Notes: generated by a model not told the origin, from the sequence alone. A DNA stretch of 64,000 nt from Candidatus Levyibacteriota bacterium (GCA_016186645.1 JACPLF010000003.1:4112-68111); one strand, 5' to 3'; numbered from the stretch's first letter, positions 4,011 through 63,341 are shown. Numbers and translations are program-made.

Positions 4011-4118
4011 TTAACCTAATTGCTCTAATTCCTAAGTTGGAGTTTGGCCCGTCTTGCCGGCGAGGCAGGGAATTGATTAGGTTAATTAGAGTAATTAGTA
4101 ATTAGTAATTAGAAATTT
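4003..4118. repeat. family 1 MITE-like element, copy 1, between tmk and the dcd paralog
   Basis: cctaattaacctaatt ... aattgattaggttaattag TIRs. GC-rich core ggcccgtcttgccggcgaggcaggg, then (gt)aattag x4. Confidence 0.65.
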
Positions 4119-4125
4119 TAAGAAT

Positions 4126-8274: not shown

Positions 8275-9591
8275 ATGAAGGCATTGGAAGACATTGATTC
8301 GCAGATTTTTGCACTTATAAAACAGGAAGAAAAACGCACGGCATCCACTTTGGAGATGATTCCTTCCAATAATTATCCAAGTAAAGCAGTTCTTGAGGCG
8401 CTTGGTTCAATATTAAACTACAAATATTCCGAGGGCTATCCGAAAAAACGTTATTATCAAGGGCAAAGAATTGCTGATCAAGTAGAGATTTTGGCTCAAG
8501 AGCGGGCAAAAAAACTTTTTGGTGTACCCCATGCAAATGTACAGCCATATTCAGGAAGTCCTGCAAATACAGCAGTATATTTTGCGCTTTTAGAACCTTT
8601 TAAGGACAAAATTATGGGTTTATCCCTGGCATATGGCGGACACTTAACTCACGGATCTCCTGTTAGTTTTTCCGGAAAATACTTTAAAGTTGTTCCTTAT
8701 CAATTGGGGAAGGATGGACGTTTTGATTATGAAGAGATAGAAAAATTGGCAATTGCGGAGAAACCAAAAATCATTGTTTGCGGGGCAACTGCATACCCAA
8801 GAATTATTGATTTTAAAAGATTTGGGCAAATCGCAGACAAAGTTGGGGCGTATTTGCTCGCGGATATTTCTCACATTGCAGGTTTAATTATTGCTGGAGT
8901 TCACCCATCGCCAGTTGATCACGCCCATATTATCATGACTACAACACACAAAACATTGCGAGGCCCGCGGGGGGCGATGATTATGGTTACAGAAAAAGGA
9001 CTTAAAAAAGACCCGGAATTGGGGAATAAAATTGATAAGGCGGTTTTTCCAGGTTTGCAGGGAGGACCTCATGACAATCAAACAGCGGCAATCGCAGTTG
9101 CCCTTCGGCTGGCTTCGGGTAAACAGTTTAAAGTTTACATTGAGCACGTAGTGCGAAATGCAAAAGTGCTGGCTCAAGAGCTTGTTAAATTCAATTTTAA
9201 ATTAGTAAGCGGTGGAACAGACAATCACTTATTGTTAATTGATTTGTCCAACAAAAAAGTAAATGGCGCAGTTGCGGCTTTGGCTTTGGAAGTTGCGGGC
9301 ATTGTAATTAATAAAAACGCAGTGCCGGGTGACTTAATGCCTCCTTTTTATCCTTCCGGAATTAGATTAGGAACGCCCGCAATCACAACTCGCGGCATGA
9401 AAGAGCGGGAAATGGTAAAAATTGCAAATTGGATAAATGAGACGATTAATGAAGTTTCAAATCGGGTTTTGCCTGCGAATAAAGAACAACGAAAGGAATT
9501 TTTCAAAAATTTCCGTGAAGAAGTTTTCAAAAACAAAAAACTATTACAAATCGCCAAAGAAGTGAGGGAGCTTTGCTCAAAGTTTCCTTAA
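8275..9591 (+). CDS. glyA: serine hydroxymethyltransferase
   Basis: Full-length SHMT; the PLP-lysine region is in THKTLRGPRG. Confidence 0.95.
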   Translation: MKALEDIDSQIFALIKQEEKRTASTLEMIPSNNYPSKAVLEALGSILNYKYSEGYPKKRYYQGQRIADQVEILAQERAKKLFGVPHANVQPYSGSPANTAVYFALLEPFKDKIMGLSLAYGGHLTHGSPVSFSGKYFKVVPYQLGKDGRFDYEEIEKLAIAEKPKIIVCGATAYPRIIDFKRFGQIADKVGAYLLADISHIAGLIIAGVHPSPVDHAHIIMTTTHKTLRGPRGAMIMVTEKGLKKDPELGNKIDKAVFPGLQGGPHDNQTAAIAVALRLASGKQFKVYIEHVVRNAKVLAQELVKFNFKLVSGGTDNHLLLIDLSNKKVNGAVAALALEVAGIVINKNAVPGDLMPPFYPSGIRLGTPAITTRGMKEREMVKIANWINETINEVSNRVLPANKEQRKEFFKNFREEVFKNKKLLQIAKEVRELCSKFP

Positions 9592-9673
9592 GACTTTTAA
9601 TCCGGGCATTTAATCACCAATTTTTAGAATTCAAACTGCTCTCAAAAACAAATTTAGACATCTGATTATTTAC

Positions 9674-9684
9674 AGCGATCGCAT
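9674..9684. repeat. AGCGATCGCAT (HIP1-like 11-mer) copy; five identical copies in the window
   Basis: Copies at 4342-4352, 9674-9684, 23653-23663, 34208-34218 and 40775-40785. Each continues into similar A-rich ATCA(G/T)A context. Confidence 0.7.
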
Positions 9685-9713
9685 AAAAAAATCAGATAAC
9701 TAAATGTAAATTT

Positions 9714-9867
9714 ACCCCGTTACCCAATGTCCCATCCGTTAGGATGCGGGTTTCTAGTGGCGTGAAGCGAAAATTCAATAATGCCCGGACCCGCTTCGCC
9801 CAAGCTCCCGCCTAGACTCGGCGAGGCTGGTCAGCGAGGCGAGCCGTAAGGTCGTGGGTAACGGGGT
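9714..9867. repeat. 154-bp MITE-like element with 13-bp perfect terminal inverted repeats; the interior carries a 57-mer that is also present inside dnaX
   Basis: ACCCCGTTACCCA at 9714-9726 and TGGGTAACGGGGT at 9855-9867. Interior 9788-9844 matches 25870-25926 at 55 of 57 positions. Confidence 0.7.
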
Positions 9868-9978
9868 TTACTGAATTCCTGTTATTGTAAGACTGAGGTG
9901 TCAAGCTAACACACCCCAGGGGTGTACGAGGGGAGTGTTCTGTCAGGAAAAAGTCGAGTTGAAAATGAAATCATCTTA

Positions 9979-9987
9979 TGCTATAAT
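9979..9987 (+). promoter_or_regulatory. extended -10 promoter TGCTATAAT, 8 nt upstream of the ATG at 9996 (leaderless start)
   Basis: Sequence tgctataat ccgatagt ATG. Confidence 0.5.
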
Positions 9988-9995
9988 CCGATAGT

Positions 9996-11522
9996 ATGAT
10001 AGGCACAAAGGAAGCAGTTTCTCGTACATTTCCAGAAACTCTAAGTGGAGAGCAAAACAGCTTCGTAGGTTTTATTGACCAAAATAGAGATCTTTTTGAG
10101 AGACATACTTCTTCGACTTATGAGTTAAGAGATGAACGAGATGGCTGGAGAAATTCTCCCACGATAAGTGAAGTGGCGCATAAGCACGCAGTTCTGTCAC
10201 TGCCTCTTAGGGGGGGGCATAATGCGTCTCCTCCAAACACCAGAGAATGGAAGCGGCATGAAGAGAGGATAAGAGATGCTATCGATAGGGAAATCTTTAG
10301 CAGCCCTGATGGAAAAAATACTTTGCCTGCAAAGCGACCGCCTCTTGATTCAATTTGGGCGAAAACAACTCCTTTACAAAGAGCTGAAATACAAGAATTA
10401 ATGGGCAGGACTGAAGAATTTCAAGCAGACTTCCTTGCGGCAATAGCGCCTTTAGCCGCAGAAGTTGAACAATTAAAAGAGGAATTATTTTCCAATTTCA
10501 AAAATTATCTGTTTTCAGATCCTGACGGCATTTTCGCCGTTAGAGATTTCCTAACAGATAAAAAATTCGCGTCTCAGAGAGAAACCATAAGACCTTTTCT
10601 TGCCAGTTTTGTTCAGAGTGAAGATAAGTTAGCAAAAGACGGCAAGAGAGGAATATTGGGCGAGACAGTTAAAAAGTGGGCAGATGAAATTTCGAAAAGA
10701 GTAACTCCAGTTCTTGTTGACGAATTTGTTGAGTCTATTAGAAATCCTAATGTTCTTGAATGGCTGGAATTTGCAGCAAATATGCCTATAAGCGTTCTGG
10801 GTACAACTGAGGAAAGGGATAAAGATTTGATAAGAGATAGCATTGTCAGTTTTCTTAAGAGCCGTCCGGATGTTTCTTTTTGGCCGCCAGAACTCAAAAA
10901 AGCATTATCCTCTTTTGCTTCATCTAAATATGCTACCGCGCGTTCTTCTGTAGAAAAGGGGTTAGAAGGGTTTAGAAGACCGTTGAGTTCAAAACCGGCA
11001 CCGCAGATCCATCTGGAACCAGAAAAGAAAATAGAAGGGGCGCCTGTTCAGGAAGATGCCAAAAAAGAACCAGATGATAAAAAAGGTGCATCAGAAAAGG
11101 CTGAAAAAAGAAAATATCCGATTGGGATATTGACAAAAGAAAGCGGATCGTCGCATGGGTTTGACATTAGGGTTTTAACAGAAGAGGAACTGAAAGATTT
11201 TTTACGAGAAAAGGCTGATTCTTTTGCTTCTTCGGATTTAAAAATGGCGGGAGATTTTAGAACTATAGTTGCCAGTCTGCGAGAGGATCCTTATGGGTTT
11301 GGCACAAAAAAACTCAACAACATGTCTGTTGGAATTGGTAAAACAAAAAGTTCTCCCATTCGAAGCATGGATCCTGGAAAAAGAATCGGCCTTCATCTTG
11401 AACATCCGGAATCGCAGAAAATTAGAATTGCTTATGTTATTTATGGAAGCGGAGACGATAAAGTAATTGTTATTGAAGGAATTTATAGTCATGATGATTA
11501 TGACAGTAAATTTGGAGCATAG
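9996..11522 (+). CDS. hypothetical 508-aa protein with a C-terminal RelE/ParE-like toxin fold
   Basis: C-terminal about 100 aa (LKDFLRE...DPYGFGTKKLNN...IRIAYVIYGSGDDKVIVIEGIYSHDDY) follows the RelE/ParE pattern. The N-terminal 400 aa are unrecognised. The gene is GC-richer than the flanking sequence. Confidence 0.5.
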   Translation: MIGTKEAVSRTFPETLSGEQNSFVGFIDQNRDLFERHTSSTYELRDERDGWRNSPTISEVAHKHAVLSLPLRGGHNASPPNTREWKRHEERIRDAIDREIFSSPDGKNTLPAKRPPLDSIWAKTTPLQRAEIQELMGRTEEFQADFLAAIAPLAAEVEQLKEELFSNFKNYLFSDPDGIFAVRDFLTDKKFASQRETIRPFLASFVQSEDKLAKDGKRGILGETVKKWADEISKRVTPVLVDEFVESIRNPNVLEWLEFAANMPISVLGTTEERDKDLIRDSIVSFLKSRPDVSFWPPELKKALSSFASSKYATARSSVEKGLEGFRRPLSSKPAPQIHLEPEKKIEGAPVQEDAKKEPDDKKGASEKAEKRKYPIGILTKESGSSHGFDIRVLTEEELKDFLREKADSFASSDLKMAGDFRTIVASLREDPYGFGTKKLNNMSVGIGKTKSSPIRSMDPGKRIGLHLEHPESQKIRIAYVIYGSGDDKVIVIEGIYSHDDYDSKFGA

Positions 11523-12071: not shown

Positions 12072-12142
12072 CCCGCCTAAGCTTGCTTTGCAGCTTTTCA
12101 GTATTATTCATACACGCTGCAAAGAGCGCTTTAGCGGCGGGT
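12072..12142. repeat. CCGCCTAAG...CTTTAGCGGCGG palindromic element (family 2), copy in the rpsB 5' leader
   Basis: Arms cccgcctaagc and gctttagcggcggg, with an inner gctttgcagc/gctgcaaagagc hairpin. Homologous copies at 23554-23614 and 23768-23910. Confidence 0.6.
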
Positions 12143-12154
12143 AAAGGGAGAAAT

Positions 12155-12973
12155 ATGAGAGAAATTACACTGGAAGAATTATTGGAGGCAGGCTGTCATT
12201 TTGGCCACCAGGTCACAAGAAGCAATCCCAAGGCTCGTGATTTTATATTTGAAGCCCGCGATAATATCCACATTATTGATTTAGCCAAAACAAAAGAAGG
12301 GCTCGTTGAGGCCGCCGCTTTTGTCAAAGATTTAGCATCCAAAAATGGAACTTTGGTAGTTGTCGGAACAAAAAGACAGGCAAAAGCGATTGTGGAAGAA
12401 GCCCTACGCCTTGCTCAGGATAAAGGAGCAGGGGAAGGACTTTATTATATAACTAACCGTTGGGTTGGAGGACTTTTGACAAATTTCTCCGAGGTTTCCA
12501 AAAACTTTAAAAAATATGCAGATTTCGTAACTGATTTGCAGGATGACGAAGTAAAAGCAAGATATACAAAAAAAGAAATAGGCGGGTGGGAGAAAGAAAG
12601 CCGCAAGTTGGAAAATCTTTACGGCGGAGTTGCGAAAATTACAAAAAAACCTGATGCATTATTTATTATCGACTCCCATTTGGAAGATTTGGCAGTTAGG
12701 GAAGCTTTAGCTACACATATTCCAACTGTCGGAATAGTTGATACAAATGCAGACCCGGCTGTTTTAGACTATCCAATTCCTGCCAACGACGATGCAGTCG
12801 GTTCGATAAAATTAATCGTAAGCTATATAATTGATGCGTGGATAGAAGGCCGCAAGGAAGCCGAACTAAGAATTAAGAATGAAGAATTAAAAGTTAAAAA
12901 AGAAGCTGAAAAGGCAGAAGCAAAAGCATCTAAGGTACAAGTTAAAACCGTTGCAAAAAAGAAAAAGAAATAA
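12155..12973 (+). CDS. rpsB: 30S ribosomal protein S2
   Basis: MREITLEELLEAGCHFGHQ N-terminus. SD AAGGGAG at 12144-12150. Confidence 0.95.
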   Translation: MREITLEELLEAGCHFGHQVTRSNPKARDFIFEARDNIHIIDLAKTKEGLVEAAAFVKDLASKNGTLVVVGTKRQAKAIVEEALRLAQDKGAGEGLYYITNRWVGGLLTNFSEVSKNFKKYADFVTDLQDDEVKARYTKKEIGGWEKESRKLENLYGGVAKITKKPDALFIIDSHLEDLAVREALATHIPTVGIVDTNADPAVLDYPIPANDDAVGSIKLIVSYIIDAWIEGRKEAELRIKNEELKVKKEAEKAEAKASKVQVKTVAKKKKK

Positions 12974-13002
12974 TTGTTAAATTGTTACATTGTTAAATTG
13001 TT
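12973..13002. repeat. tandem 8-bp AAATTGTT-type repeats (about 4 units) between rpsB and tsf
   Basis: taattgttaaattgttacattgttaaattgtt. Similar arrays at 23078-23150 and inside pepP at 62513-62545. Confidence 0.6.
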
Positions 13003-13458
13003 ATGATAGGCTTGGAACTTCTAAGAAAACTTCGAAACGAGACACAGGCGGGGATTGCCGATTGCAGGAGGGCTTTGGAAGAATCGAATAATGATTATAA
13101 AAAAGCACTCGTTTGGCTTAGAGCTCACGGATTGGAAAAAGCCGCCAAAAAGAAAGACCGCCAGACCTCTCAAGGATTAGTAGAATCATACATTCATCAA
13201 AATGGACGGGTTGGAGCGTTGGTGGAAGTTTTGTGCGAGACCGATTTTGTTGCCCGAACAGACGAATTCAAACATTTTGTACACGAAATTTGCATGCAGG
13301 TCGCAGCAATGAAACCAAAAGATGTACCAGCACTTTTGAAACAGGAATACATTAGAGACGGTTCAAAAACTATTGAAAGTTTGATAAAAGAAACAATCGC
13401 AAAGTTAGGTGAAAATATAGTTGTCAAAAGACTCCAAAGATTTGGAATAGGAGAATAA
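13003..13458 (+). CDS. tsf: elongation factor Ts (short form)
   Basis: UBA-like N-terminus (GIADCRRALEESNNDYKKALVWLR) and a dimerisation core. At 151 aa it is the truncated form seen in reduced genomes. Confidence 0.8.
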   Translation: MIGLELLRKLRNETQAGIADCRRALEESNNDYKKALVWLRAHGLEKAAKKKDRQTSQGLVESYIHQNGRVGALVEVLCETDFVARTDEFKHFVHEICMQVAAMKPKDVPALLKQEYIRDGSKTIESLIKETIAKLGENIVVKRLQRFGIGE

Positions 13459-14856: not shown

Positions 14857-16041
14857 ATGTTAATTACAATACTCGTTTTTCTACTTATTTTAAGCATTCT
14901 CGTGTTGATCCATGAAGCCGGGCATTTTTTTGTTGCGAAAAAATTCGGAATAAAAGTTGAGGAGTTTGGCTTTGGTTTTCCGCCAAGAGTGTTTAGTTTT
15001 AAAAAAGGAGAAACCATTTATTCTATAAACTGGCTGCCAATCGGGGGATTTGTAAAATTGTATGGGGAAGATGAAGCCCCCCTTCGCTCAGATTCTCCTC
15101 GTGGTCTACGTCCACGCAGTCGAAACTTCGCTTCGGAGGGGCAAGCATTTTTTGCGAAGAGCGCTTGGCAGAGAGCGACAGTAATTATTGCAGGAGTTGT
15201 AATGAATGCTGTTTTGGCTGCTGTTATTTTCTACATCTTTCTTGGCGTTTCAGGATTCAAAACAGAATTACCCCTTCTTTCTGATTATAAATTCGTAGGG
15301 GTAAATCAGACAAATCTACAGCAGGTAGTAATTTCAGCCATTGCTAAAAACTCACCCGCGGAAAAACAAGGGTTAAAGCCTCTCACTAAAGTTATTTCTG
15401 TAAATGGGCAAGAAATTAAAGATTCAAAAGAATTTATAAGTATTGTTGGTTTGAACAGAGGCAAAGAAATTGAGATTGCGTGGAGCAATTTGCAAACTAA
15501 CGAAACTCATAAGACCAAAGTGACTCCTCGAATAAATCCTCCGAAAAATGAAGGGGCATTGGGTGTCGGACTGTTTTCGCTTTCCACTGCGGTTTTGAAT
15601 TATGAAACTCCAATTCAAAAAACTTTTTCAGGCATAATTCACCCTATAAATTTAATGTCCTACAACCTAAACGTAATGGGGAATTTGGTAAAGTCATCTT
15701 TTGAAAAAAAGACCACAGAGCCAATCAGTCAGGGTATATCCGGACCTGTTGGAATCGCTTCTCTAACCGGAAGTATTTTGGAAATACAAAATTTAAAAGA
15801 AAAATTATTAGGCCTTCTTAACCTGGCAGGCATTTTGTCTATTTCTTTGGCATTTTTCAATGTGTTGCCGATACCGGCCCTTGATGGAGGAAGATTGTTT
15901 TTTATTTTGATTGAAGCTGTAATAGGAAGGAAAGTGAATCAGAGAATCGAATCTTTTACTCATTCAGTCGGAATGGCTCTTCTTCTTGGCCTAATGCTTC
16001 TTATTACGTTTAAAGATATAGGAAAACTATTTATCAAATGA
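14857..16041 (+). CDS. rseP: RseP-like site-2 zinc metalloprotease (M50) with a PDZ domain
   Basis: HEAGHFFVAKKFG motif and the C-terminal LDGG region. Carries a GC-rich in-frame insert at about 15071-15150. Confidence 0.85.
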   Translation: MLITILVFLLILSILVLIHEAGHFFVAKKFGIKVEEFGFGFPPRVFSFKKGETIYSINWLPIGGFVKLYGEDEAPLRSDSPRGLRPRSRNFASEGQAFFAKSAWQRATVIIAGVVMNAVLAAVIFYIFLGVSGFKTELPLLSDYKFVGVNQTNLQQVVISAIAKNSPAEKQGLKPLTKVISVNGQEIKDSKEFISIVGLNRGKEIEIAWSNLQTNETHKTKVTPRINPPKNEGALGVGLFSLSTAVLNYETPIQKTFSGIIHPINLMSYNLNVMGNLVKSSFEKKTTEPISQGISGPVGIASLTGSILEIQNLKEKLLGLLNLAGILSISLAFFNVLPIPALDGGRLFFILIEAVIGRKVNQRIESFTHSVGMALLLGLMLLITFKDIGKLFIK

Positions 16042-16709
16042 AAAAGGTTACCATAATTACAGTAGAAAATCAGCAAGAAGGCTTGGCTGCTGCAAAGTAT
16101 TTGCTATACAAAAAAGTTGACGATCAAACACTGCTTCTTCTCTCGGGGGGATCAACCCCAAAAGATTTGTACGAAACTATAGCGCAGGAAAAAAAGTTAA
16201 CGGCTAAAGCAGTTGGAATGGTTGATGAGAGGAAAGATAGAAGCAATTATAAAATGATAATGTCAACAGGATTATTGGATTATCTTAAGAATCTGAAAAT
16301 AAAATTTTACCCAATGATTTCTGCATCGTATTACGATAGGGACATACATAAACTTATAGGTTCATCTAAAAATAAAGCAGCTGTTATGGGTATTGGAGCA
16401 GATGGACACACAGCCGGCTTGCCAGCCGGAACTCAAATCTCAAATCTTAAATCTCAAAACTACGTAATAGATATAAATAATTTTCCTGGGGAGTTTAGAA
16501 AAAGAGTTACATTAACATTTAGAGCTCTTTTGAAAATGGATTTACTAATTGTCCTAGCTTTTGGCGAAAACAAAAAAGAGGCTTTGGAAAAAATGTTTGA
16601 CCCTTCGGCGGACTCAGGGCAAGAAGCGATTGAAGAAATTCCTGCAAGATTTTATCTTCGTCCCGATATTGCTCCTAAAACCCTTTTAATTACTGATCAG
16701 AAGATATAG
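16038..16709 (+). CDS. pgl: 6-phosphogluconolactonase
   Basis: GIGADGHTAGL motif of the NagB/DevB family. Confidence 0.7.
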   Translation: MKKVTIITVENQQEGLAAAKYLLYKKVDDQTLLLLSGGSTPKDLYETIAQEKKLTAKAVGMVDERKDRSNYKMIMSTGLLDYLKNLKIKFYPMISASYYDRDIHKLIGSSKNKAAVMGIGADGHTAGLPAGTQISNLKSQNYVIDINNFPGEFRKRVTLTFRALLKMDLLIVLAFGENKKEALEKMFDPSADSGQEAIEEIPARFYLRPDIAPKTLLITDQKI

Positions 16710-19743: not shown

Positions 19744-20996
19744 ATATGCGTTACTCTAAGCTATTTGGGAAAACCATAAAAAATGCGCCGAATGATGAGG
19801 TCAGTCTAAATTCCAAGCTCTTAACCCGCGCCGGATTCATACGTCGTGAAGTTTCCGGAGTGTACAATTATCTGCCCTTAGGCTTAAGAGTAATTGAAAA
19901 AATTTCCAATATAGTCCGGGAGGAAATGCATGCAATCGGCGGACAGGAATTGTTGTTAAGCGCTCTTCAAAATAAACAGTCTTGGGAGAAAACAGGCAGA
20001 TGGAAAAGTTTTGATGTGCTTTTCAAACTCACAAGTGTTTTGGATCGGGAGTATCCTTTGGGGCCTACACATGAAGAAGTAATTATTCCTTTAGCAAAAC
20101 AATTTATAAGCTCGTACAAAGATTTGCCTTTTAGTGTTTATCAAATTCAGACAAAATTTAGAGATGAAAAAAGAGCCAAAAGCGGAATTTTAAGAGGCCG
20201 TGAGTTCCTGATGAAAGATTTATATTCATTTCATGCAGATGAAAAAGATTTCAAAAAATATTACGAAACTGTAAAAAAAGCATACAAAAAAATTTTTAAA
20301 CGTTTGGGACTTATCGCTATTGAAACAGAAGCAAGCGGAGGATCATTTAGTAAAGTTTCTCATGAATATCAAGTTATTGCCGCGGCGGGAGAGGATGAGA
20401 TTATTTATTGCCCGGGCGGAGATTTTTCTGCAAACAGTGAAATAAGTCCTGTTAAGGAAGGAAAACAGTGTGACTTGGGCCATGGAGCCTTAAAAAAGGT
20501 AAAAGCAATTGAAGTTGGGAATATTTTCCCTCTTGGCACAAAGTTTTCCGATGCTTTTGGATTGACTTATAAAAATAAAGAAGGCAAAGATATTCCTGTT
20601 GTCATGGGATGTTATGGGATTGGCATCTCAAGACTGATGGGTACAATTGCCGAAGTTCATAATGATGAAAAAGGAATTGTCTGGTCAAAAGAGGTTGCGC
20701 CGTATGACGTTCACTTGGTCCACCTCGGAGGAGTCGAGGCCGCTGCCTCGCCACCGTCCGAGGTGATACGTTTTGCGGATGAAGTTTATGAAACACTGAA
20801 GAAGAATGGAGTTGAAGTTTTGTGGGATGATCGGGAAGAGTCTCCAGGAACTAAATTCGCAGACGCAGACCTCATCGGAATTCCAGTTCGGTTGGTTGTT
20901 AGTAAAAGAAATGGCGACAAGGTCGAGTTTAAAAATAGAAATTCAGAAAAATCAGAGCTTTTAAGTTTGGGAGAGACTGCTAAAAAATTAAGGTAA
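19744..20996 (+). CDS. proS: prolyl-tRNA synthetase, minimal form with no editing insertion
   Basis: Class II motifs and MRYSKLFGKTIKNAP N-terminus. ATG at 19744 (the ORF track begins at the TTG at 19737). TGCTATACT at 19725-19733. Carries an in-frame hairpin insert at 20721-20765. Confidence 0.9.
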
Positions 20997-21599
20997 AAAG
21001 GGAACTTTGAAGTTGAAGATTTTTGTCCAGAAAAGCGTGTAGATCACAATGAAAATCAATCCCGCAATTCCAAATAAAATAGGTATCATTATCCCGCTTT
21101 TCTTTTTGATAGCAATAGTTTGAGCTTGAGGCTGGGGCTGGGGAGCTGAAAAATTTGCTGAAGAAGGAGAAGCTGTAACTTCTGAGTTCATTTGAACAAA
21201 GTTAGAAGCTTGCGGCTGCGTGGGGATAGCTAGGTCGGGTGTTGGAATAGGTTCAGGCTGAGGATGAATTGCAGGCTGAGGCTCGGGTATTGAAGGTTGT
21301 GGCTCGGAAATAGGCTCAGGTTCATTCGTAGGGGCTGGAGGCGGCTGAATAGGCTGAGTTGGTATTGGTTCTGGTTGAGGCATTGGTGTTGGAGCAGGAG
21401 TTGGATTGGGCATAGGAGGTGTAGTTCCGCCGGCTGGCGGAGTAAGAGTTTGAGTCTGAATTGGCTCGCCTCGGGGCGAAGCCACGCCAAAGGCGGGCGA
21501 AGGAGGCTGAGTTTGCGGTTGGGGCACAGGTGTTCCCATTACGCGCTGATAGGCTTCTCTTAATTTCGGATCGAGCTGGGACAGTTTTTGCGGATCCAT
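20988..21599 (-). CDS. proline-rich tail-anchored membrane protein
   Basis: PQPEPIPT repeats and a C-terminal TM helix. Contains the 18-mer CTCGCCTCGGGGCGAAGC (21465-21482) on its antisense. Confidence 0.5.
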   Translation of the reverse strand: MDPQKLSQLDPKLREAYQRVMGTPVPQPQTQPPSPAFGVASPRGEPIQTQTLTPPAGGTTPPMPNPTPAPTPMPQPEPIPTQPIQPPPAPTNEPEPISEPQPSIPEPQPAIHPQPEPIPTPDLAIPTQPQASNFVQMNSEVTASPSSANFSAPQPQPQAQTIAIKKKSGIMIPILFGIAGLIFIVIYTLFWTKIFNFKVPFLP

Positions 21600-21762: not shown

Positions 21763-21809
21763 TTTTGATTAATTTGTCAAGGGGTGCAGTCTGCTGTATA
21801 CTTAAAAGC

Positions 21810-22091
21810 ATGAATCCCGTTAAAGATCGCTTTTATTATGTTTACATTTTACAAAGTTTGAAGAGCAACAAATGGTATACTGGCTACACAAATGAATTAC
21901 GCAAGCGTTTTAATCAACATCAAGAAAATAAATCTACATATACAAAAGGACGAGGACCTTTTAATCTTATATATTATGAAACATCGTTGAGAGAGGAGGA
22001 CGCTATAGCGAGAGAAAGATATCTTAAAAGCGGGATGGGCAAACGATATCTTAAAAATAGATTAAAACGCTCGCTATCTTTAACGGGATGA
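21810..22091 (+). CDS. GIY-YIG family nuclease (small, UPF0213-like)
   Basis: YYVYILQS...WYTGYTNELRKRFNQH. The TATACT -10 lies 7 nt before the ATG. Confidence 0.75.
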   Translation: MNPVKDRFYYVYILQSLKSNKWYTGYTNELRKRFNQHQENKSTYTKGRGPFNLIYYETSLREEDAIARERYLKSGMGKRYLKNRLKRSLSLTG

Positions 22092-23077
22092 AAATCGTTG
22101 TAACTCACAGTTCGCCGGACATGGATGCCATAACTTCTGTCTGGCTTATCAGAAAATTTTTACCAAATTGGAGCGATGCCCTAGTTAGGTTTGTACCAGC
22201 GGGAGAAAGGTTTACTTTTCGGAAAACTCAGAATGCTCAGAGCTCCAGCGTTTCTGACGGTCAGACTATCAGACAATCTGACTCTCCGAGTTCTTCAGAG
22301 TTTTCTGAAGTTGTCGAAAATATTGGCGAGGATGAAGTTATCCATGTTGATACTGGATTGGGACCTCTGGATCATCATCAGACTGCATCGGATGAAGTAT
22401 GCGGAGCAAGCCTGACGTTTGACTTCGTCAAACGAGTTCAAAATTCAAAATTCTCGCCTCGGGGCGAAGCGGGCAAAATTCAAAATTTGGAAAGCAAAAA
22501 GTGGAACGACAGAATGAAGGCAGTAGGGAGGATGGTGAAAGTTGTTGTTGATATAGATCATTTTAAGGAAGTTTTCCGCAAGGACCCTTTGGCTGACTAT
22601 CATGAATTTGACCTTGCAGGTATTTTGGATGGGCTCAAGCTCGAGCTTCCGGGTCAAGATGAATTATATGTTGCAGAAGTTAGCAAATCTTTGGATGCAA
22701 TTTTGCATGGGTTTGAAAATAGGATTTGGGCGGAAAAAGAAATCAGGGAAAAAGGGAAAAAATTTAAAACGCGCTTTGGCCGCGGAATTGGTTTAGAGAC
22801 AATAAATGATTCGGTTGTAAAATTGGCTCAAAAAATGGGATATGTAATTGCTGTGAGAAAAGATCCAAGAAAAGGGTACGTCCGAATAAAAGTGAGGCCG
22901 GATAGTAAAATTGATTTGACTTTAGTCTACGAGAAGTTTAGAAAAATCGACCCGGATGCCACGTGGTTTCTTCATGTTTCCAAAAAAATGCTTCTCAACG
23001 GTTCGGTAAAAAATCCCAAGATGAGGTCTACCAAGCTTTCTTTGAATGACATAATTAGAGTTCTAGAAAAGATATAA
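22088..23077 (+). CDS. DHH-family phosphoesterase (nanoRNase/NrnA-like)
   Basis: HSSPDMDAITS, DTGLGPLDHHQ. Overlaps the GIY-YIG stop. Carries in-frame repeat inserts at 22261-22300 and 22452-22469. Confidence 0.75.
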   Translation: MKIVVTHSSPDMDAITSVWLIRKFLPNWSDALVRFVPAGERFTFRKTQNAQSSSVSDGQTIRQSDSPSSSEFSEVVENIGEDEVIHVDTGLGPLDHHQTASDEVCGASLTFDFVKRVQNSKFSPRGEAGKIQNLESKKWNDRMKAVGRMVKVVVDIDHFKEVFRKDPLADYHEFDLAGILDGLKLELPGQDELYVAEVSKSLDAILHGFENRIWAEKEIREKGKKFKTRFGRGIGLETINDSVVKLAQKMGYVIAVRKDPRKGYVRIKVRPDSKIDLTLVYEKFRKIDPDATWFLHVSKKMLLNGSVKNPKMRSTKLSLNDIIRVLEKI

Positions 23078-23150
23078 TTGTTATATTGCTAAATTGTTAT
23101 ATTGTTAAATTGTTTTTGGTTCCTAGCAATATAGCAATTTAACAATAAGC
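23078..23150. repeat. tandem 8-bp AAATTGTT/ATATTGCT repeats with an inverted partner
   Basis: attgttatattgctaaattgttatattgttaaattg ... caatatagcaatttaacaat. Confidence 0.6.
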
Positions 23151-23171: not shown

Positions 23172-23537
23172 ATGGAAAACTGTGTTTTTTGCAAAATCAG
23201 AGATAGAATTATCCCGAAAGAATTCACTTACGAAGATGAATCGGTGATGGTTTTTCCGGATATAAATCCAATTAAGCCTGTTCATCTTTTGATTGTTCCC
23301 AAAAAACATATAGAAGACTTTTTAATGATAAATGATCCCTACAACGCTCGCGCTTCGAGGGGCGAGGCAGGTAAATTATTAATTATGAAGTTAATAAAGA
23401 TAACTCAAAAAATGATAAAGAAGTTCGGATTAGAAAATAAGGGATACAGGGTTGGAATAAACGGCGGAGGAGCCCAAATCATAAACCATCTTCACTTCCA
23501 TCTCCTAGGCCCCATGGGTAAAGCTGCTGCGATGTAA
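23172..23537 (+). CDS. HIT-family (histidine triad) nucleotide hydrolase
   Basis: NHLHFHLLG histidine triad. Contains the 21-mer ACAACGCTCGCGCTTCGAGGG (23341-23361), identical to a stretch in folC. Confidence 0.85.
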   Translation: MENCVFCKIRDRIIPKEFTYEDESVMVFPDINPIKPVHLLIVPKKHIEDFLMINDPYNARASRGEAGKLLIMKLIKITQKMIKKFGLENKGYRVGINGGGAQIINHLHFHLLGPMGKAAAM

Positions 23538-24155: not shown

Positions 24156-24542
24156 ATGGAGCAGGTTAATATCCCCATTTTTGTAGAAAGCAGATATAGA
24201 GTCAATAGGAAACGCATTAAACAAGCTGTTTCCAAAGTGCTAATGAAGCACGAAATCAAAGGCCCTGTGGAGGTTTCTGTTGCTATTGTTGGAGATCGGA
24301 AAATGCGCGCTTTAAGCAAAAAATATAAAGGTGAGGACAAGACAAGAAATGTTTTATCATTTTCACTGTCCGAAGGTGAATCAGCACATTTGGATAACGA
24401 AGTTTTAAGACTCGGAGACATTGTCCTGTCCTACCCGCAAGTTATAAAAGAAGCATCGGAAGAAGAAATGCTTGTGGATGATAAAATTGATGAACTCATT
24501 GAACACGGAATGCTCCACCTTTTGGGAATCAATCATGAGTGA
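24156..24542 (+). CDS. ybeY: rRNA maturation endoribonuclease YbeY
   Basis: NVLSFSL, LGDIVLSYP and HGMLHLLGINHE motifs. Confidence 0.8.
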   Translation: MEQVNIPIFVESRYRVNRKRIKQAVSKVLMKHEIKGPVEVSVAIVGDRKMRALSKKYKGEDKTRNVLSFSLSEGESAHLDNEVLRLGDIVLSYPQVIKEASEEEMLVDDKIDELIEHGMLHLLGINHE

Positions 24543-24544
24543 AA

Positions 24545-24697
24545 TTGACCTAATTGCCCTAATTAACCACGTCAAACGTGGCAGGCCTAATTTCTAAGCT
24601 GGAACTTGGCCCGCCTTGCCCGTTTCGACTCAACGAGGCGAGCCGGGCGAGGCAGGGATTTGATTAGGTCAATTAGAAATTAGAATAATTAGAAATT
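24545..24697. repeat. family 1 MITE-like element (TTGACCTAAT/ATTAGGTCAA TIRs) followed by AATTAG tandem repeats
   Basis: Homologous to 4003-4118. Confidence 0.65.
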
Positions 24698-24704
24698 TAG
24701 GTGT

Positions 24705-26291
24705 ATGGTTTTTTATCGAAAATATCGTCCGCAAAAAATAGAAGAGCTGGATAGTAAAGAAGTTAGGGACAAACTTCATAGTGTTTTGGGAAGCTCCTCT
24801 GTTTCTCATGCTTTTCTTTTTACAGGCCCCAAAGGTTTGGGAAAAACCTCAGCTGCAAGAATTGTCGCAAAAGTCCTAAACTGTGAAAAGGTGAGAAATG
24901 AGAAAGGAGAAATGAAAAATAAAGATAAAACTTCCCATCTCTCATCTCTCACTTCTCATTTCCGTGCGGTTGAGCCGTGCAATAAATGTGAACAATGCAT
25001 CTCGATTACACGCGGAACAAATCTAGACGTTTTGGAAATAGATGGTGCTTCAAATAGGGGAATAGATGAAATAAGAGATCTTAGGGAAAAAGTAAAACTT
25101 TCTCCAGCCGGGAGCCGCAAAAAAGTTTATATTATCGATGAAGTTCACATGTTAACCGCAGAAGCGTTTAATGCGCTTCTTAAAACTTTGGAAGAACCGC
25201 CAAGTCATGTTGTTTTTATTCTCTGCACAACAGAACCTCACAAAGTGCCAAGCACAATTCTGTCCCGTTGTTTACATATTCAATTTAGAAAAGCAACAGA
25301 GGCAGAACTGGTCAGATCGTTTGAAAGAATAATTAAAGCGGAAAAAATAAAAGCCGACAAAGAAGCCTTAGATTTAATCGCTAGTCTTTCAGACGGTAGC
25401 TTTAGAGACGGATCAAAACTTTTGGAAGAAATAGCTCTTTTGGCAGGACGTAAAAAAATTGCAAAAGAATTGATAGAAGAAAAATATTATGTATCAAGTA
25501 TTAAGTATCATATTAGAGCGATGGTGAAATGTTTGGATGCGAAAGACACAAAAGGAGGACTTGAACTTGTTTCAAAGCTGACAGAACAGGGCATTGACAT
25601 GAAGTTTTTTATTGAAGAATTAATACAGACTCTCCATAGTTTGTTACTTCAAAAAGTAGGGATTAAGAATGATCAAGAATTGGAAGTTCAAATTCTAGAC
25701 TTTGATATCAATGGAATCAAAAGACTGGTAGAATTATTTGCAAAAGCGCACAGCGAATTAAAATATGCGGTTTTGCCCCAGATTCCTTTGGAGCTGGTGA
25801 TTGTGGAATGGGGAATCCAGAAAACTCAGAATACTCAGCAATCCGGCAATTCTGATAATCAGACGATCAGACCCGCTTCACCGAAGCTCCCGCCTAGACT
25901 CGGCGAGGCTGGTCAGCGAGGCGAGCAATCTGATTCTCCGAGTATTCAGAAAATGGTGAAAGCACAAAAAAATGAAATACCGCTTAATGTTGCTCAGCAG
26001 AATATGATGGGGTACAGTGAGAATAATGCGTTGTGGGTCTCTTTGATAGATAGAGTGAAGGCTTACAATCATTCTATTGCCGGGGTATTGCGCGGATGCA
26101 GGATAAAAAGTTATGATGGTAAGAGTTTAATAATAGAAGCAAATTTCAAATTCCATAAAGATAAATTAGGGGAAATAAAAACACAACAGGTTTTGGAAGA
26201 AGCATGCAAAGAAATTACGAAGAAAAATGTTAAAGTAGAAGTGATGATGAAACCCGCCGTCGCTAAAGCTTTGGCGGGCGATGGGAGGTGA
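24705..26291 (+). CDS. dnaX: DNA polymerase III subunits gamma/tau
   Basis: MVFYRKYRPQKIEEL, GPKGLGKTS P-loop, a zinc module with CNKCEQC, and a box VII LSRC sensor. Carries nested GC-rich repeat inserts at 24930-24965 and 25857-25943. Confidence 0.9.
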   Translation: MVFYRKYRPQKIEELDSKEVRDKLHSVLGSSSVSHAFLFTGPKGLGKTSAARIVAKVLNCEKVRNEKGEMKNKDKTSHLSSLTSHFRAVEPCNKCEQCISITRGTNLDVLEIDGASNRGIDEIRDLREKVKLSPAGSRKKVYIIDEVHMLTAEAFNALLKTLEEPPSHVVFILCTTEPHKVPSTILSRCLHIQFRKATEAELVRSFERIIKAEKIKADKEALDLIASLSDGSFRDGSKLLEEIALLAGRKKIAKELIEEKYYVSSIKYHIRAMVKCLDAKDTKGGLELVSKLTEQGIDMKFFIEELIQTLHSLLLQKVGIKNDQELEVQILDFDINGIKRLVELFAKAHSELKYAVLPQIPLELVIVEWGIQKTQNTQQSGNSDNQTIRPASPKLPPRLGEAGQRGEQSDSPSIQKMVKAQKNEIPLNVAQQNMMGYSENNALWVSLIDRVKAYNHSIAGVLRGCRIKSYDGKSLIIEANFKFHKDKLGEIKTQQVLEEACKEITKKNVKVEVMMKPAVAKALAGDGR

Positions 26292-27628: not shown

Positions 27629-28237
27629 ATGAAAATACCTAAAGCCATACAAAGCCTAATTGAGTCTTTTGAGAAACTGCCGGGCATTGGGCAGAAAACT
27701 GCCCAGCGCCTCACTTTTTATCTATTGCATATTCCGCAAGGCGAGTTAGATAACTTTGCCAATTCAATCCAGAATCTTAAAAAAGGAACAATTATTTGTT
27801 CTATTTGTTTTTCAGTTGATGAGGCCGACCCATGCAGTATTTGTGAGAATCGAGAGCGTGATAAGTCTATTATTTGTGTTGTTGAAGAGCCGTTGGATGT
27901 TTTGGCGCTTGAGAAAAACGGTAAATACCATGGTGTATACCATGTTCTGCATGGGAAAATAGATCCGCTAAACAATATAGGTCCGGACGAAATTTATATA
28001 AAGCAATTATTGGATAGAATTATGAATCAAGAATCAGGAATTAAGGAGGTAATATTAGCTACAAACCCGACAATGGAAGGAGAGGCGACGGCAATGTACA
28101 TAGCAAAACAACTCAAATCTCAAATCTCAAATCTCAAAATTACGAGGATTGGGAGAGGGCTGCCAACAGGCGCGGATATTGAATACGCGGATGAGTTAAC
28201 TCTTCAACGAGCCATGGAAGGCAGGCAAAATTACTGA
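27629..28237 (+). CDS. recR: recombination protein RecR
   Basis: LPGIGQKTAQRL HhH, C4 zinc finger and Toprim. Confidence 0.9.
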   Translation: MKIPKAIQSLIESFEKLPGIGQKTAQRLTFYLLHIPQGELDNFANSIQNLKKGTIICSICFSVDEADPCSICENRERDKSIICVVEEPLDVLALEKNGKYHGVYHVLHGKIDPLNNIGPDEIYIKQLLDRIMNQESGIKEVILATNPTMEGEATAMYIAKQLKSQISNLKITRIGRGLPTGADIEYADELTLQRAMEGRQNY

Positions 28238-31950: not shown

Positions 31951-32930
31951 TTTTTTGTTTTTAGAAATTCTAATGTTTCCTTCGCATTTTGAAACTTCAT
32001 AAGTTCTGTTCTCACATTACTTGCGTTTGGCATGCTCGCCTCGCTGAAGCTTTGGCGAAGCGGGCCGGAGATGTAGATTTTGTAGAACTTTTTCATAATG
32101 GAGAAGTTTTTAGTTTTGCCCCAAGTTTTGTCAAAAAGCGTAATGTGCGTAATTAATAATTTTAATTTTTCTTGATAAGAAATGCTTGCTGGGTTTATGG
32201 ATTTATTATAAATCCAAAGGTTGTCAAAAATTCCCCGTCCTATCATAATTCCATCAACTTTATATCTCTTGTATTTTTCCATTGCATCGTCAAGACTTTT
32301 TACATCGCCATTTCCGATAATTAGGGTTTTGACTTTCATAGCATCTCTCAATTTAACAACTTTTCCGATTTCATCCCAGTGGGCCGGAACATCTGACATT
32401 TCCGCAGCTGTCCGGCCATGAATTATAAGGCAATCAAGATTTAATCCCAGCAAAAATCTTGCCCATTTTTCTGTTTGAATATTTTTAATTCCGATTCTGG
32501 TTTTAACGCTTACAGGGAGACCACTGGCGCCCTCCCGTGTTGCCAAAATAATTTCTTTGGCAAGTGCATGGTTGTTTATTAAAGCAGCACATGAGCCTTT
32601 TTTTACAACTGATTTTTCCGGACACCCCATGTTGATGTCAATCCCATCAAAACCTCTGAGTCTTATTAATTTTGCAGTTTCAAAATAATTTTTGGGATTG
32701 TTTCCCCAAATCTGCGCAACAATCGGGTGTTCAATATCTGTAAATTTTAATCTTTTCCCAACTTTGTCCCGGCCTTTTGAACACATGCCTTCGACATTTG
32801 TGAACTCTGTAAAAAAGACATCGGGTTTTCCACATCTTGCAATTATTTGTCGGAAAACCGTATCAGTCACATCTTCCATTGGGGCCTGAATCAAAATCGG
32901 TTTTTTAAGACTAGTCCAAAAGTTCTTCAT
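31947..32930 (-). CDS. dus: tRNA-dihydrouridine synthase
   Basis: APMEDVTD..., INMGCPEKSVVKKGSCAAL motif. Confidence 0.85.
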   Translation of the reverse strand: MKNFWTSLKKPILIQAPMEDVTDTVFRQIIARCGKPDVFFTEFTNVEGMCSKGRDKVGKRLKFTDIEHPIVAQIWGNNPKNYFETAKLIRLRGFDGIDINMGCPEKSVVKKGSCAALINNHALAKEIILATREGASGLPVSVKTRIGIKNIQTEKWARFLLGLNLDCLIIHGRTAAEMSDVPAHWDEIGKVVKLRDAMKVKTLIIGNGDVKSLDDAMEKYKRYKVDGIMIGRGIFDNLWIYNKSINPASISYQEKLKLLITHITLFDKTWGKTKNFSIMKKFYKIYISGPLRQSFSEASMPNASNVRTELMKFQNAKETLEFLKTKN

Positions 32931-62222: not shown

Positions 62223-63341
62223 CTAAAGTTCGATAAGATTCTTTGGGGAATGGGTGAGAAGACGAGGGCCTTTCTTTTCTAAGACTACCAAATCCTCAAT
62301 CCTAACACCGCCAAGGTTTGGAATGTAAATTCCCGGTTCAATTGAAAAAACCATCCCAACTTTTAAAATATCTTTGGATTTTGGAGAGAGACGGGGCGCT
62401 TCATGAACATCGATCCCGATTCCATGACCGAGAGAATGGGGAATAGTTTTGTATCCTTTGGATATGATGTGTTCTCGGGCAATTTTATCAATTTTAGATG
62501 CCTTAATGCCTTTATCCAATTGCTTTATTGTTAAATTGCTAAATTGTTGAATTGCTTTTTTTTGCGATTCCAAAACTGTTTGGTACATCCTTTTTTGTTC
62601 GGCTGTTGGTTTTCCGAAGAAAATTGTGCGGGTCATGTCAGAACAATAATTATTTAATTTAACCCCGAAATCCAACAAAACAAACTGACCACTAGACGCT
62701 AGACGCTGATTGCTGGTTTGGTGGTGGGGGATGGCGGAGTTTTTTCCAAACGCAACAATGGGCTTAAAAGAAATATCGCCGCCTTGTTTTTTTATGAAAA
62801 ATTCTATTTCATTCGCTATTTCTTTTTCCGAGACTCCTAGTTTAATCTTCTTTAAGATATAATCAAAAGTTTTGTCGGAAAGCACGCACGCTTTTTCTAT
62901 TTTTGAAACTTCTTCTTTATTCTTTATTGCACGTAAGTTATTTAAACTAAAATGATTTAAATCATTAAAGCGAGAAGATAATTTTTTATGTTCCAAAAAG
63001 GTAAGATTATTTCCCTCAAAGCCCATGCGTTTGACGCGATATTTTTTGATAAGCTGTTTAAGCGCTTTTTCAAAAGATAGTTTTGAAGAAATCTCAATCG
63101 ATTTAAAATTATGTACCAATTTTTTTATGGCTTGAGAATATCTCCCGTCAGTCAAAATATATTGTTGATTTTTGGCCCGCTTCGCCGCGAGGCGAGTAAT
63201 AAATAAATATGCTTCGCGTTCTTCTTTGGAAAACCCTGAATAATTTGTCAGATATACTATATTGGAAAAAGATGAAATTAAAACTGCATCCAATTTCTTT
63301 TTTGCAAATTCCTGTTTAAGTTTTGCAAGAGGAGTACTCAT
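62223..63341 (-). CDS. pepP: Xaa-Pro aminopeptidase (M24B)
   Basis: Pita-bread HSLGHGIGIDVHE and metal ligands. Contains in-frame AAATTGTT repeats (62513-62545) and a GC-rich CGCTTCGCCGCGAGGCGAG insert (about 63176-63200). Confidence 0.85.
   Translation of the reverse strand: MSTPLAKLKQEFAKKKLDAVLISSFSNIVYLTNYSGFSKEEREAYLFITRLAAKRAKNQQYILTDGRYSQAIKKLVHNFKSIEISSKLSFEKALKQLIKKYRVKRMGFEGNNLTFLEHKKLSSRFNDLNHFSLNNLRAIKNKEEVSKIEKACVLSDKTFDYILKKIKLGVSEKEIANEIEFFIKKQGGDISFKPIVAFGKNSAIPHHQTSNQRLASSGQFVLLDFGVKLNNYCSDMTRTIFFGKPTAEQKRMYQTVLESQKKAIQQFSNLTIKQLDKGIKASKIDKIAREHIISKGYKTIPHSLGHGIGIDVHEAPRLSPKSKDILKVGMVFSIEPGIYIPNLGGVRIEDLVVLEKKGPRLLTHSPKNLIEL

Follow-up and report, generated by a model that had tools for sequence, protein, structure and literature searches.

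A 21-nucleotide GC-rich hairpin repeat inserted within genes as probable miniature mobile DNA in bacteria of the candidate phyla radiation

The DNA considered here is a stretch of 64,000 nucleotides from a Candidatus Levyibacteriota bacterium (GCA_016186645.1, JACPLF010000003.1:4112-68111), hereafter called the window, with positions counted from its first letter. A search of the window for the 18-mer CTCGCCTCGGGGCGAAGC finds it exactly on the plus strand at 21465-21482 and 22453-22470 (the original prediction had placed the latter copy one base off, at 22452-22469), and with one mismatch on the minus strand at 63179-63196. As that prediction had it, the two exact copies lie in frame in two genes coded on opposite strands: the open reading frame (ORF) 22088-23077 (+), encoding a DHH phosphoesterase, translates the region as ...NSKFSPRGEAGKIQN..., and the ORF 20988-21599 (-), encoding a proline-rich protein, translates the reverse complement of the 18-mer as ...FGVASPRGEPIQ..., with SPRGE being read in both. 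A chance or purely compositional match between two GC-rich stretches can be dismissed, as dinucleotide shuffles of the window predict 0.01 matches, none of 100 shuffles reaches three, and more than 110 further copies exist outside the window. We interpret the 18-mer as the core of a 21-nt GC-rich, hairpin-forming repeat, non-coding in itself, which behaves as miniature mobile (selfish) DNA in the AT-rich genomes of bacteria of the candidate phyla radiation (CPR), and we put the probability of this reading at roughly 0.78.

The complete unit can be written as CTCGCCTCG-N-GGCGAAGCGGG or, equivalently, TCGCCTCGNGGCGAAGCGGGY; it starts with CTCG, finishes with CGGG and has the symmetric core TCGCC-TCGN-GGCGA. 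With a GC content of 81%, compared with 35-41% for the window, it makes the 18-mer a GC island. As single-stranded DNA the unit is predicted to fold into a 5-bp stem (TCGCC/GGCGA) with a 4-nt loop and a 3' tail, AGCGGG, at -5.0 to -5.6 kcal/mol (z = -1 to -2), so the near-palindromy pointed out earlier is real, if short. An alternative pairing available to either strand joins arms of 9 nt with one wobble pair and one C-A mismatch, and the asymmetry of the pairing is retained in all copies, which argues for copying of the sequence and against selection for pairing ability alone. Searching for the half-sites CTCGCCTCG ... GGCGAAGCGGG as arms, we found seven copies in the window, five of them in coding sequences (CDS), i.e. 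a density of about one per 9 kb (7 in 64 kb), as opposed to 5 in 580 kb of relatives. In line with this, the word CGAGGCGAG occurs seven times in the window against 0.12 expected, and GGCGAGGCAG and GGCGAAGCGGG are likewise among its over-represented related words or GC-rich islands. The two identical copies first noticed thus belong to a large nested family; the one at 21465, for instance, represents the first 18 bases of a 42-nt composite (table 1).

The DHH gene provides the clearest evidence for insertion. A search with its protein product led to 35 syntenic loci, mostly labelled Candidatus Levybacteria (L-numbers denote compared loci or contigs and P-numbers homologous proteins), and protein and codon alignments show that SPRGEAG (21 nt) is absent from the orthologous DHH gene of all 35. 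The DHH protein of the window is itself identical to the NCBI entry HYW62_00525 of a Candidatus Levybacteria bacterium. Among 120 listed DHH homologues, SPRGE occurs only in the query (P0001) and in P0057. In the closest relative (P0003, from locus L157, with 74% amino acid identity) the site reads ...GAATTCAAAATTCAAAATT|CAAAATTCAAAATTTGGAAAGC..., which equals the flanks in the window without the 21 nt. When emptied of these, the window site aligns without gaps to L001, L005 and L007, and four perfect TTCAAAA units are restored, as in L157 and L007. Given the intact flanks in L157 and the gapless alignment of the emptied site, exactly 21 nt were inserted, without any target duplication, the boundary being ambiguous by a single base (CTCGCC...GCGGG or TCGCC...GCGGGC). 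In the proline-rich gene the 42-nt composite adds 14 codons that L157, L002 and L009 lack, so both copies of the 18-mer are in-frame insertions, as originally supposed, one in each orientation with respect to its host gene.

A second clean pair of filled and empty sites comes from a cluster of SSB proteins, in which two members share the sequence ...ILLD-SPRGEAG-SRRPAG... and a 98% identical protein labelled Gottesmanbacteria lacks exactly those seven residues. At the DNA level the aligned block around the site in L080 (filled) and L163 (empty) is identical except for the 21 nt and one substitution, with a few more substitutions some 80 nt upstream; no duplication is seen, and the junction can be placed in more than one way, within 2-3 nt. 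Because alleles with and without the 21 nt thus occur in near-identical DNA, the indel must be recent; GAPDH alleles also exist in both states. New copies are therefore exact 21-nt insertions without target-site duplication. As to the window itself, its two 18-mers both have loop G, a variant found in 1 of 111 low-GC metagenome copies among the matches listed, which implies that they are sister copies made within the lineage of the window.

To describe the distribution of the element we rely on a scan of metagenome contigs with the exact pattern CTCGCCTCGNGGCGAAGCGGG, which was matched by at least 120 contigs; all counts of copies given here and below are counts among the matches listed, the sequences examined are contigs or loci, and taxon labels are taken from cluster mates. 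The scan gave 111 distinct copies in contigs of 31-51% GC, 107 of them with loop C, the commonest form of the element in metagenomes, and seven listed copies in high-GC contigs, which are probably unrelated. Ten element-bearing proteins are all present in the protein collection, and their cluster mates (at least 90% identity) are labelled Candidatus Woesebacteria, Shapirobacteria, Roizmanbacteria and Gottesmanbacteria, while the GAPDH cluster mates without the insert are labelled Staskawiczbacteria. Carriage by phages was considered and rejected, since the element has no match in 2.9 million viral contigs. The element is mobile, or recently has been so, widespread in Microgenomates-type CPR bacteria and mostly intragenic.

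The last point derives from an assignment, based on ORF length, of 113 distinct copies: 70 are strictly contained in long ORFs, 23 are outside any long ORF and 20 are ambiguous, so that long ORFs hold at least 62% of the copies. Collapsing similar contexts left 67 independent coding copies, among which all six frames are found: SPRGEAG (31 copies), PASPRGE (12), RLAAKR (11), LASRRSG (6), PLRREAS (6) and RFAARR (1). The two frames that read SPRGE account for 43 of the 67, against an expectation of one third (binomial p = 2.4e-7), and an SPRGE frame is the commonest one in each orientation (31 of 48 forward and 12 of 19 reverse copies), the excess of forward over reverse being itself significant (p = 5e-4). 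A model deriving the frame bias from the flank preference of the element (see below) combined with the codon structure of the window genes was rejected: it predicts 15% for SPRGEAG and 22% for RFAARR, whereas 46% and 1.5% are observed (chi-square p = 2e-11). Selection on the encoded peptide is hence the likelier cause of the bias.

The original prediction went on to suggest that the palindromy of the element, by giving an open and similar peptide in both orientations, explains how insertions persist in CDSs. The similarity of the peptides holds, as the symmetric core gives SPRGE in one frame per strand; the openness, however, follows from GC richness. The 21-nt unit has no stop in any of the six frames, and the same applies to 72% of composition-matched shuffles, as opposed to 14% of random 21-mers from the window, so that freedom from stops is a by-product of base composition, and persistence does not require palindromy. 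Longer relatives of the element (30-54 nt) have stops in one to four frames and still sit in CDSs. Persistence is explained more directly by a length that is a multiple of three, a GC richness that removes stops, and insertion into tolerant loops. In the AlphaFold model of the DHH protein (mean predicted local distance difference test score, pLDDT, of 84) SPRGEAG (residues 123-129) forms a coil between helices 106-121 and 131-157, and the 10-residue block has a pLDDT of 59, compared with 91 and 80 for its neighbours. In the structures PDB 5uvm and 6d6j the insert in the HIT gene corresponds to a gap that separates a strand from a helix, and when the Xaa-Pro peptidase is aligned to PDB 3q6d, its copy coincides with a stretch containing gaps.

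Independent insertions have struck the same loops more than once. The DHH gene of L156, whose product is 63% identical to that of the window, has a loop-C element at the homologous position. A metagenome orthologue of prolyl-tRNA synthetase (ProRS; L037) carries the canonical 21-nt element in a loop that is variable in the window. The HIT insert is absent from L001, L002 and L008, and L009 has a different palindrome at the same site; the insert is common to the window and L157 but diverged, and is therefore older. More generally, a gene-by-gene comparison of the window with L157 reveals many GC-rich indels of 9-54 nt, in both directions. Another insertion hot spot was observed in the 6-phosphogluconolactonase gene at a heptamer array (window 16413-16458), where L157 has a 30-nt palindrome (PHFAKASRGE) and L007 a 35-nt one (1275-1339), the window having the array alone.

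The element has recognizable preferences for its surroundings. Position -2 is T or G in 100 of 110 copies, position -1 is G or A in 88 and position +1 is C or T in 103, the preferred flanks thus being K-R on the 5' side and Y on the 3' side. Many copies sit at the centres of other palindromes, such as cctgcctg[E]ccggcaggcagg (E being the element), and metagenome copies occur inside relatives of the element, including multiply nested forms with tandem CGAAGCGGG units in their arms. Copies nested within copies were found in L051, L052, L068, L069 and L120 as well as in the window, as seen from the comparison of 24608-24657 with 4046-4070 and from the 54-nt composites. The composite in the DnaX gene splits an AT-rich palindrome at ATCAGA^CAATCTGA, an uninterrupted paralogue of which lies in the DHH gene at 22262-22291. 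This palindrome, the 30-mer CAGACNATCAGACAATCTGAYTCTCCGAGT, is itself in frame in both genes (22262-22291 in DHH; 25860-25871 plus 25926-25943 in DnaX).

Identical 7-mers are present on both sides of 9 of the 110 copies, where shuffled pairing would give 0.55. Each of the nine is situated in a heptanucleotide tandem array, the periodicity of which is restored when the element is removed. A 7-bp target duplication was rejected as the reason: the arrays pre-exist, the window and its relatives have arrays of equal length once the 21 nt are subtracted, and an addition of 21 + 7 nt would break the frame. Arrays of period 7 cover 0.86% of 644 kb of Levybacteria DNA, so that 0.95 copies would be expected in them by chance; the nine observed represent an approximately ninefold excess (Poisson p = 7e-7), with the coverage measured in genomes other than those carrying the 110 copies.

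The arrays are conspicuous in their own right. The 644 kb contain 185 of them with period 7, as opposed to 33-37 for periods 6, 8 and 9, and 6 in shuffled DNA. Examples from the window are 1774-1808, 4090-4117, 12863-12890, 16432-16458, 22437-22488, 24892-24959 and 28016-28138, others occur in L001-L035, and many of the arrays are located within CDSs. At the DHH site the arrays of the orthologues have the same period and differing units (TTCAAAA, TTCAGAR, GTCAAAA, AACTCAC, CAATTAA), which implies concerted turnover. A literature search found no link between heptanucleotide arrays and CPR.

Table 1. Copies of the 21-nt element, its relatives and associated repeats in the window.
Feature	Position	Strand	Remarks
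21-nt element, loop-G variant, DHH phosphoesterase gene	22453..22473	+	encodes SPRGEAG, residues 123-129
Heptanucleotide array (TTCAAAA)n, left part, DHH gene	22437..22452	+	element inserted into array
Heptanucleotide array (TTCAAAA)n, right part, DHH gene	22474..22488	+	
42-nt composite, proline-rich gene (gene on -)	21465..21506	+	loop-G palindrome with further 21 nt at its centre; read as PPSPAFGVASPRGE
21-nt element, loop-C variant, Xaa-Pro peptidase gene	63176..63196	-	read as TRLAAKRAKN
Variant with 10-nt loop, CTCGCCTCG-ctgaagcttt-GGCGAAGCGGG, tRNA-dihydrouridine synthase gene (gene on -)	32035..32064	+	read as GPLRQSFSEAS
54-nt composite, DnaX linker	25872..25925	-	element arms with a second palindrome, CCCGCCTAGACTCGGCGAGGCTGG, in the centre; read as PASPKLPPRLGEAGQRGE
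54-nt composite, intergenic	9790..9843	-	52/54 bases identical to 25872-25925
Outer palindrome GGCCCGCCTTGCC...GGCGAGGCAGGG, intergenic, with element-like insert at centre	24608..24657	-	folds at -18.3 kcal/mol, z = -4.3
Outer palindrome without inner insert	4046..4070	.	'empty' paralogue of 24608-24657
Diverged 36-nt GC-rich palindromic insertion, HIT gene, PYNARASRGEAG	23337..23372	+	
Nested GC-rich palindrome, variable loop of ProRS, GGVEAAASPPSE	20727..20763	+	
30-nt palindromic insertion, DnaX C-terminus	26256..26285	+	AVAKALAGDG; absent in L157
GC-rich palindromic insert, RseP gene	15076-15142		

How could such a unit spread? Genes are not exempt from insertion, and copies often occupy the centres of other palindromes, including relatives of the element, or AT-rich heptanucleotide arrays. 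Being seven codons long and too rich in GC for stops, insertions into surface loops are tolerated and persist as extensions of seven residues; in our reading, selection on the peptide may then favour the two SPRGE-reading frames, one of which is offered by the symmetric core in each orientation. Copying would proceed via single-stranded or hairpin DNA and would be catalysed in trans by an enzyme. Insertion into DNA that is transiently single-stranded is suggested by the exact ends, the lack of a duplication and the frequent choice of hairpin centres and slippage-prone arrays; it might be brought about by a sequence-specific enzyme acting in trans or by microhomology-guided template switching.

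Several observations weigh against this interpretation. No mobilizing enzyme was found among the window ORFs scanned: seven of those with no known function match no Pfam family, and the other three are PaaX_M, GIY-YIG and NYN proteins, with no transposase. A search of all ORFs in 1.3 Mb of compared sequence (about 20 kb per genome), with E. coli RayT as the query, recovered one Y1_Tnp protein (PF01797, 36 bits), on L117/L160, which is encoded 1.5 kb from an element and has no flanking copies of it. The genes for RAYT proteins (transposases associated with repetitive extragenic palindromic, REP, sequences) in L159 and L162, two of the four loci examined, are flanked by GTAG-tagged REPs of their own, GTAGGGGCGACC...GGTCGCCC and GTAGGGGACGC...GCGTCCC. 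The terminal inverted repeats and the target duplication that define classical transposons are both missing from the element. Neutral selfish DNA would not usually be expected to stay nearly identical in several candidate phyla, as the 21-mer does, and a function could be behind this; part of the conservation is due to ascertainment, since an exact match was required. Moreover, outgroups give the direction of change (insertion versus precise deletion) for the DHH gene only, the coding status of the metagenome copies depends on the ORF-length rule, and the inserted peptides are predicted from DNA.

An enzyme may not even be needed if replication or repair, by switching template at forks stalled on hairpins or slipped heptamer arrays, copies an ectopic element via microhomology of 1-3 nt. 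The lack of target duplications and terminal repeats would fit, as would the ambiguity of 1-3 nt at both clean junctions, the preference for hairpin centres and slippage-prone arrays (with 9 of 110 copies in heptamer arrays), the failure to find an enzyme in the scanned window ORFs and the 1.3 Mb, and a K-R/Y flank preference that could reflect microhomology with the flanks of the donor. Exact ends and a constant length of 21 nt in more than 100 copies from several phyla nevertheless fit sequence-specific cleavage better, and a microhomology of 1-3 nt is weak; we regard template switching as conceivable but not probable. Mobilization of a REP- or REPIN-type repeat by a RAYT, i.e. an IS200-like transposase of the Y1 (HUH) type, appears unlikely. 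The imperfect 21-nt palindrome with its conserved asymmetry and the absence of target duplication recall the chemistry of the IS200/IS605 type, one element-bearing contig does carry a Y1_Tnp gene, and Y1_Tnp homologues occur in Microgenomates, Moranbacteria and other Patescibacteria. REPs, however, are extragenic, whereas at least 62% of the copies of the element are within genes; neither a GTAG nor a CGTC tag is present in the element, REPs of the GTAGGGGCGACC...GGTCGCCC kind, rather than the element, flank the CPR RAYT genes examined, and the Y1 gene of L160, although only 1.5 kb away from a copy, has none flanking it.

Two further explanations assign a function to the repeat. It could be a DNA signal kept by selection or drive, such as an uptake sequence for competence of CPR bacteria or the binding site of a conserved protein, and the occurrence of one 21-mer in several candidate phyla agrees with this, as does the fact that its copies have either orientation and, inside genes, preferred frames, which is also reported for the uptake sequences of Neisseria (DUS) and Haemophilus (USS). 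We consider it very unlikely all the same, because copies arise as clean 21-nt insertions and not by point mutation, their density, at about one per 9 kb in the window and, in relatives, 5 in 580 kb, is far below the one per kb or so of uptake sequences, their abundance varies widely among close relatives, and nested self-insertion is typical of selfish repeats. It is still harder to believe that selection acts on the shared SPRGE(A/P) as a protein motif, with the identity of the DNA as a by-product. This would account for the strong excess of SPRGE frames in both orientations, yet one third of the coding copies are in other frames (RLAAKR, LASRRSG, PLRREAS, RFAARR), 23 of 113 copies are outside long ORFs, clearly intergenic ones exist (9790-9843, 24608-24657), the nucleotides are identical even at synonymous positions in proteins as unrelated as deformylase, GAPDH, SSB and glycosyltransferases, and the sites of insertion are low-confidence loops.

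Combining the element and the arrays leads to a wider picture that we find doubtful, though worth stating. In it, the 21-nt unit would be among the smallest mobile DNA units that we know of, moved by an as yet unrecognized activity that CPR phyla have in common and that is directed at hairpins or single strands; the excess of heptamer arrays would result from this activity too, or from the same repair deficit, and CPR proteins would be continually remodelled by 7-codon cassettes. Alternatively, the conservation across phyla would reflect a function at the DNA level.

The reading of the element as miniature mobile DNA invites comparison with known small repeats. The small dispersed repeats of cyanobacteria, reportedly described by Elhai and co-workers in 2008, are said to be palindromic units of about 21-27 nt present in many copies, in and between genes and often nested, and we know of no enzyme encoded by them. 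The 21-nt element resembles them in its very small palindromic unit, its many dispersed copies, its nesting and its presence inside genes too; it differs in that its hosts are CPR bacteria, its unit is GC-rich in an AT-rich genome and mostly coding with a frame bias, and the same 21-mer is common to several candidate phyla. The Rickettsia palindromic elements, reported by Ogata and colleagues in 2000, are said to be selfish palindromic DNA lying in frame in genes and translated as extra surface segments. They are about 100-150 bp long and restricted to Rickettsia, and to our knowledge no transposase is associated with them. They share with our element the palindromic nature and in-frame insertion relative to orthologues and differ in host and length, being about 5-7 times longer than the 21-nt unit, the composites of which do not exceed 54 nt here.

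Compared with miniature inverted-repeat transposable elements, the unit lacks target duplication and consists as a whole of a single short hairpin, and no parent insertion sequence was seen in the sequence compared; DNA uptake sequences differ from it in that it has a low density and originates by insertion. Short hairpins rich in GC are found in the AT-rich genomes of yeast and fungal mitochondria as GC clusters with a putative target-site duplication (PMC4478555), and sponges have repetitive hairpin-forming elements that are short and belong to AT-rich genomes (PMC2800124). Both parallel the 21-nt element in being short GC-rich hairpins of AT-rich genomes that form merged composites and show presence/absence polymorphism. 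The mitochondrial clusters, however, come with a putative target duplication and lie mostly between the genes of organelles, whereas the 21-nt element is bacterial and mostly intragenic and, in two clean filled/empty pairs, lacks a duplication. REP sequences, including those arranged as BIMEs and REPINs, are extragenic, have a GTAG or CGTC tag and flank the gene for their RAYT (PMC3733652, PMC3116915). An imperfect palindrome of 20-40 nt, a description that the 21-nt unit answers, and the absence of target duplication are common ground, and Y1 transposases do exist in CPR; lying in genes, untagged and not flanking a RAYT gene, the element nonetheless lacks the defining features of REPs. The closest systems in behaviour are thus the cyanobacterial small dispersed repeats, the Rickettsia palindromic elements, the mitochondrial GC clusters and the sponge hairpin elements, to none of which it belongs by host. 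In the full-text literature we found no paper with the 21-mer, its complement or SPRGEAG, and no link between palindromic in-frame repeats and CPR; no prior description of the element was therefore found.

If our interpretation is true, the proteomes of CPR bacteria (Patescibacteria) are altered by a mobile cassette of seven codons whose targets include core housekeeping proteins (ProRS, DnaX, SSB, GAPDH, peptide deformylase and SmpB among them). Selfish DNA residing in genes would then be known not only from Rickettsia but also from a large radiation of mostly uncultured bacteria, in which the unit is at least five times smaller, and the way in which a 21-nt hairpin is recognized and pasted without target duplication would become an experimentally tractable question. 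The frame bias would constitute a natural experiment on which 7-residue loop insertions are tolerated. The inserts and heptamer arrays would also disturb alignments of CPR proteins, orthology calls and phylogenies, and could serve as strain-level markers.

Some features of the surroundings deserve mention. Between the proline-rich gene and the DHH gene, and hence between the two 18-mers, the window has a gene for a GIY-YIG nuclease (21765-22091; PF01541), which is present at the same site in L008 with 84% identity. Its absence from L001, L157 and most other relatives makes it look like a mobile gene. A link to the element was rejected, since L008 is free of the element and the gene is rare on element-bearing contigs. 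Single Y1/RAYT genes of CPR bacteria (from the Microgenomates and Patescibacteria groups) are embedded among ribosomal and translation genes and accompanied by GTAG-tagged REP hairpins (L159, 10486-10580 and 11291-11325; L162, 9945-9972 and 10544-10565); REPs of the type GTAGGGGCGACC...GGTCGCCC or GTAGGGGACGC...GCGTCCC are not present in the window. A role of the intergenic copies as intrinsic terminators was rejected, as no terminator-like site occurs at 3950-4150 or 24500-24720. The window has no tRNA genes and no Rfam families, and the spacer holding one of the 54-nt composites (9560-10010) has no Rfam match. In this spacer (400 nt, 9592-9995) a long hairpin, ccccgttaccca...tgggtaacgggg, encloses the composite and may represent an unrecognized RNA gene or only nested repeats.

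Other repeats occur in the same genomes. A second GC-rich in-frame element of about 100 nt, encoding RGPVxxFPPxSARS...LRAVGSPSS..TP, is found in different genes of different Levybacteria, namely the DHH gene of L002 and L010 and the DnaX gene of L001, L009, L019, L021, L028 and L034. A third in-frame repeat of about 126 nt (QPRVSDDAR...SLSKSRLQ...FSSSESGL) occurs in unrelated genes of two genomes, a FolC-like gene of the window (1409-1534) and the DnaX linker of L002. A repeat with terminal inverted repeats, TGTCATTCTGAG...CTCAGGATGACA, is present in L148, L153, L115, L002 (about 2883-2938), L012 (about 339-395) and L113, and hosts the 21-nt element centrally in L148 and L113. Octanucleotide arrays with the unit AATTGTTA lie in the window at 12972-13003 and 23076-23114, just past the ends of the ORFs 12083-12973 and 22088-23077, and at 62527-62554, inside 62223-63341. 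The palindrome GCGATCGC, the HIP1 sequence of cyanobacteria, occurs five times (at 4343, 9675, 23654, 34209 and 40776) against 0.28 expected. Finally, nearly all genes of the window are on the plus strand, and across positions 1-64000 GC skew is positive in all 2-kb intervals but one, with a near-monotonic rise of the cumulative skew, which fits a single replichore with strong strand asymmetry.

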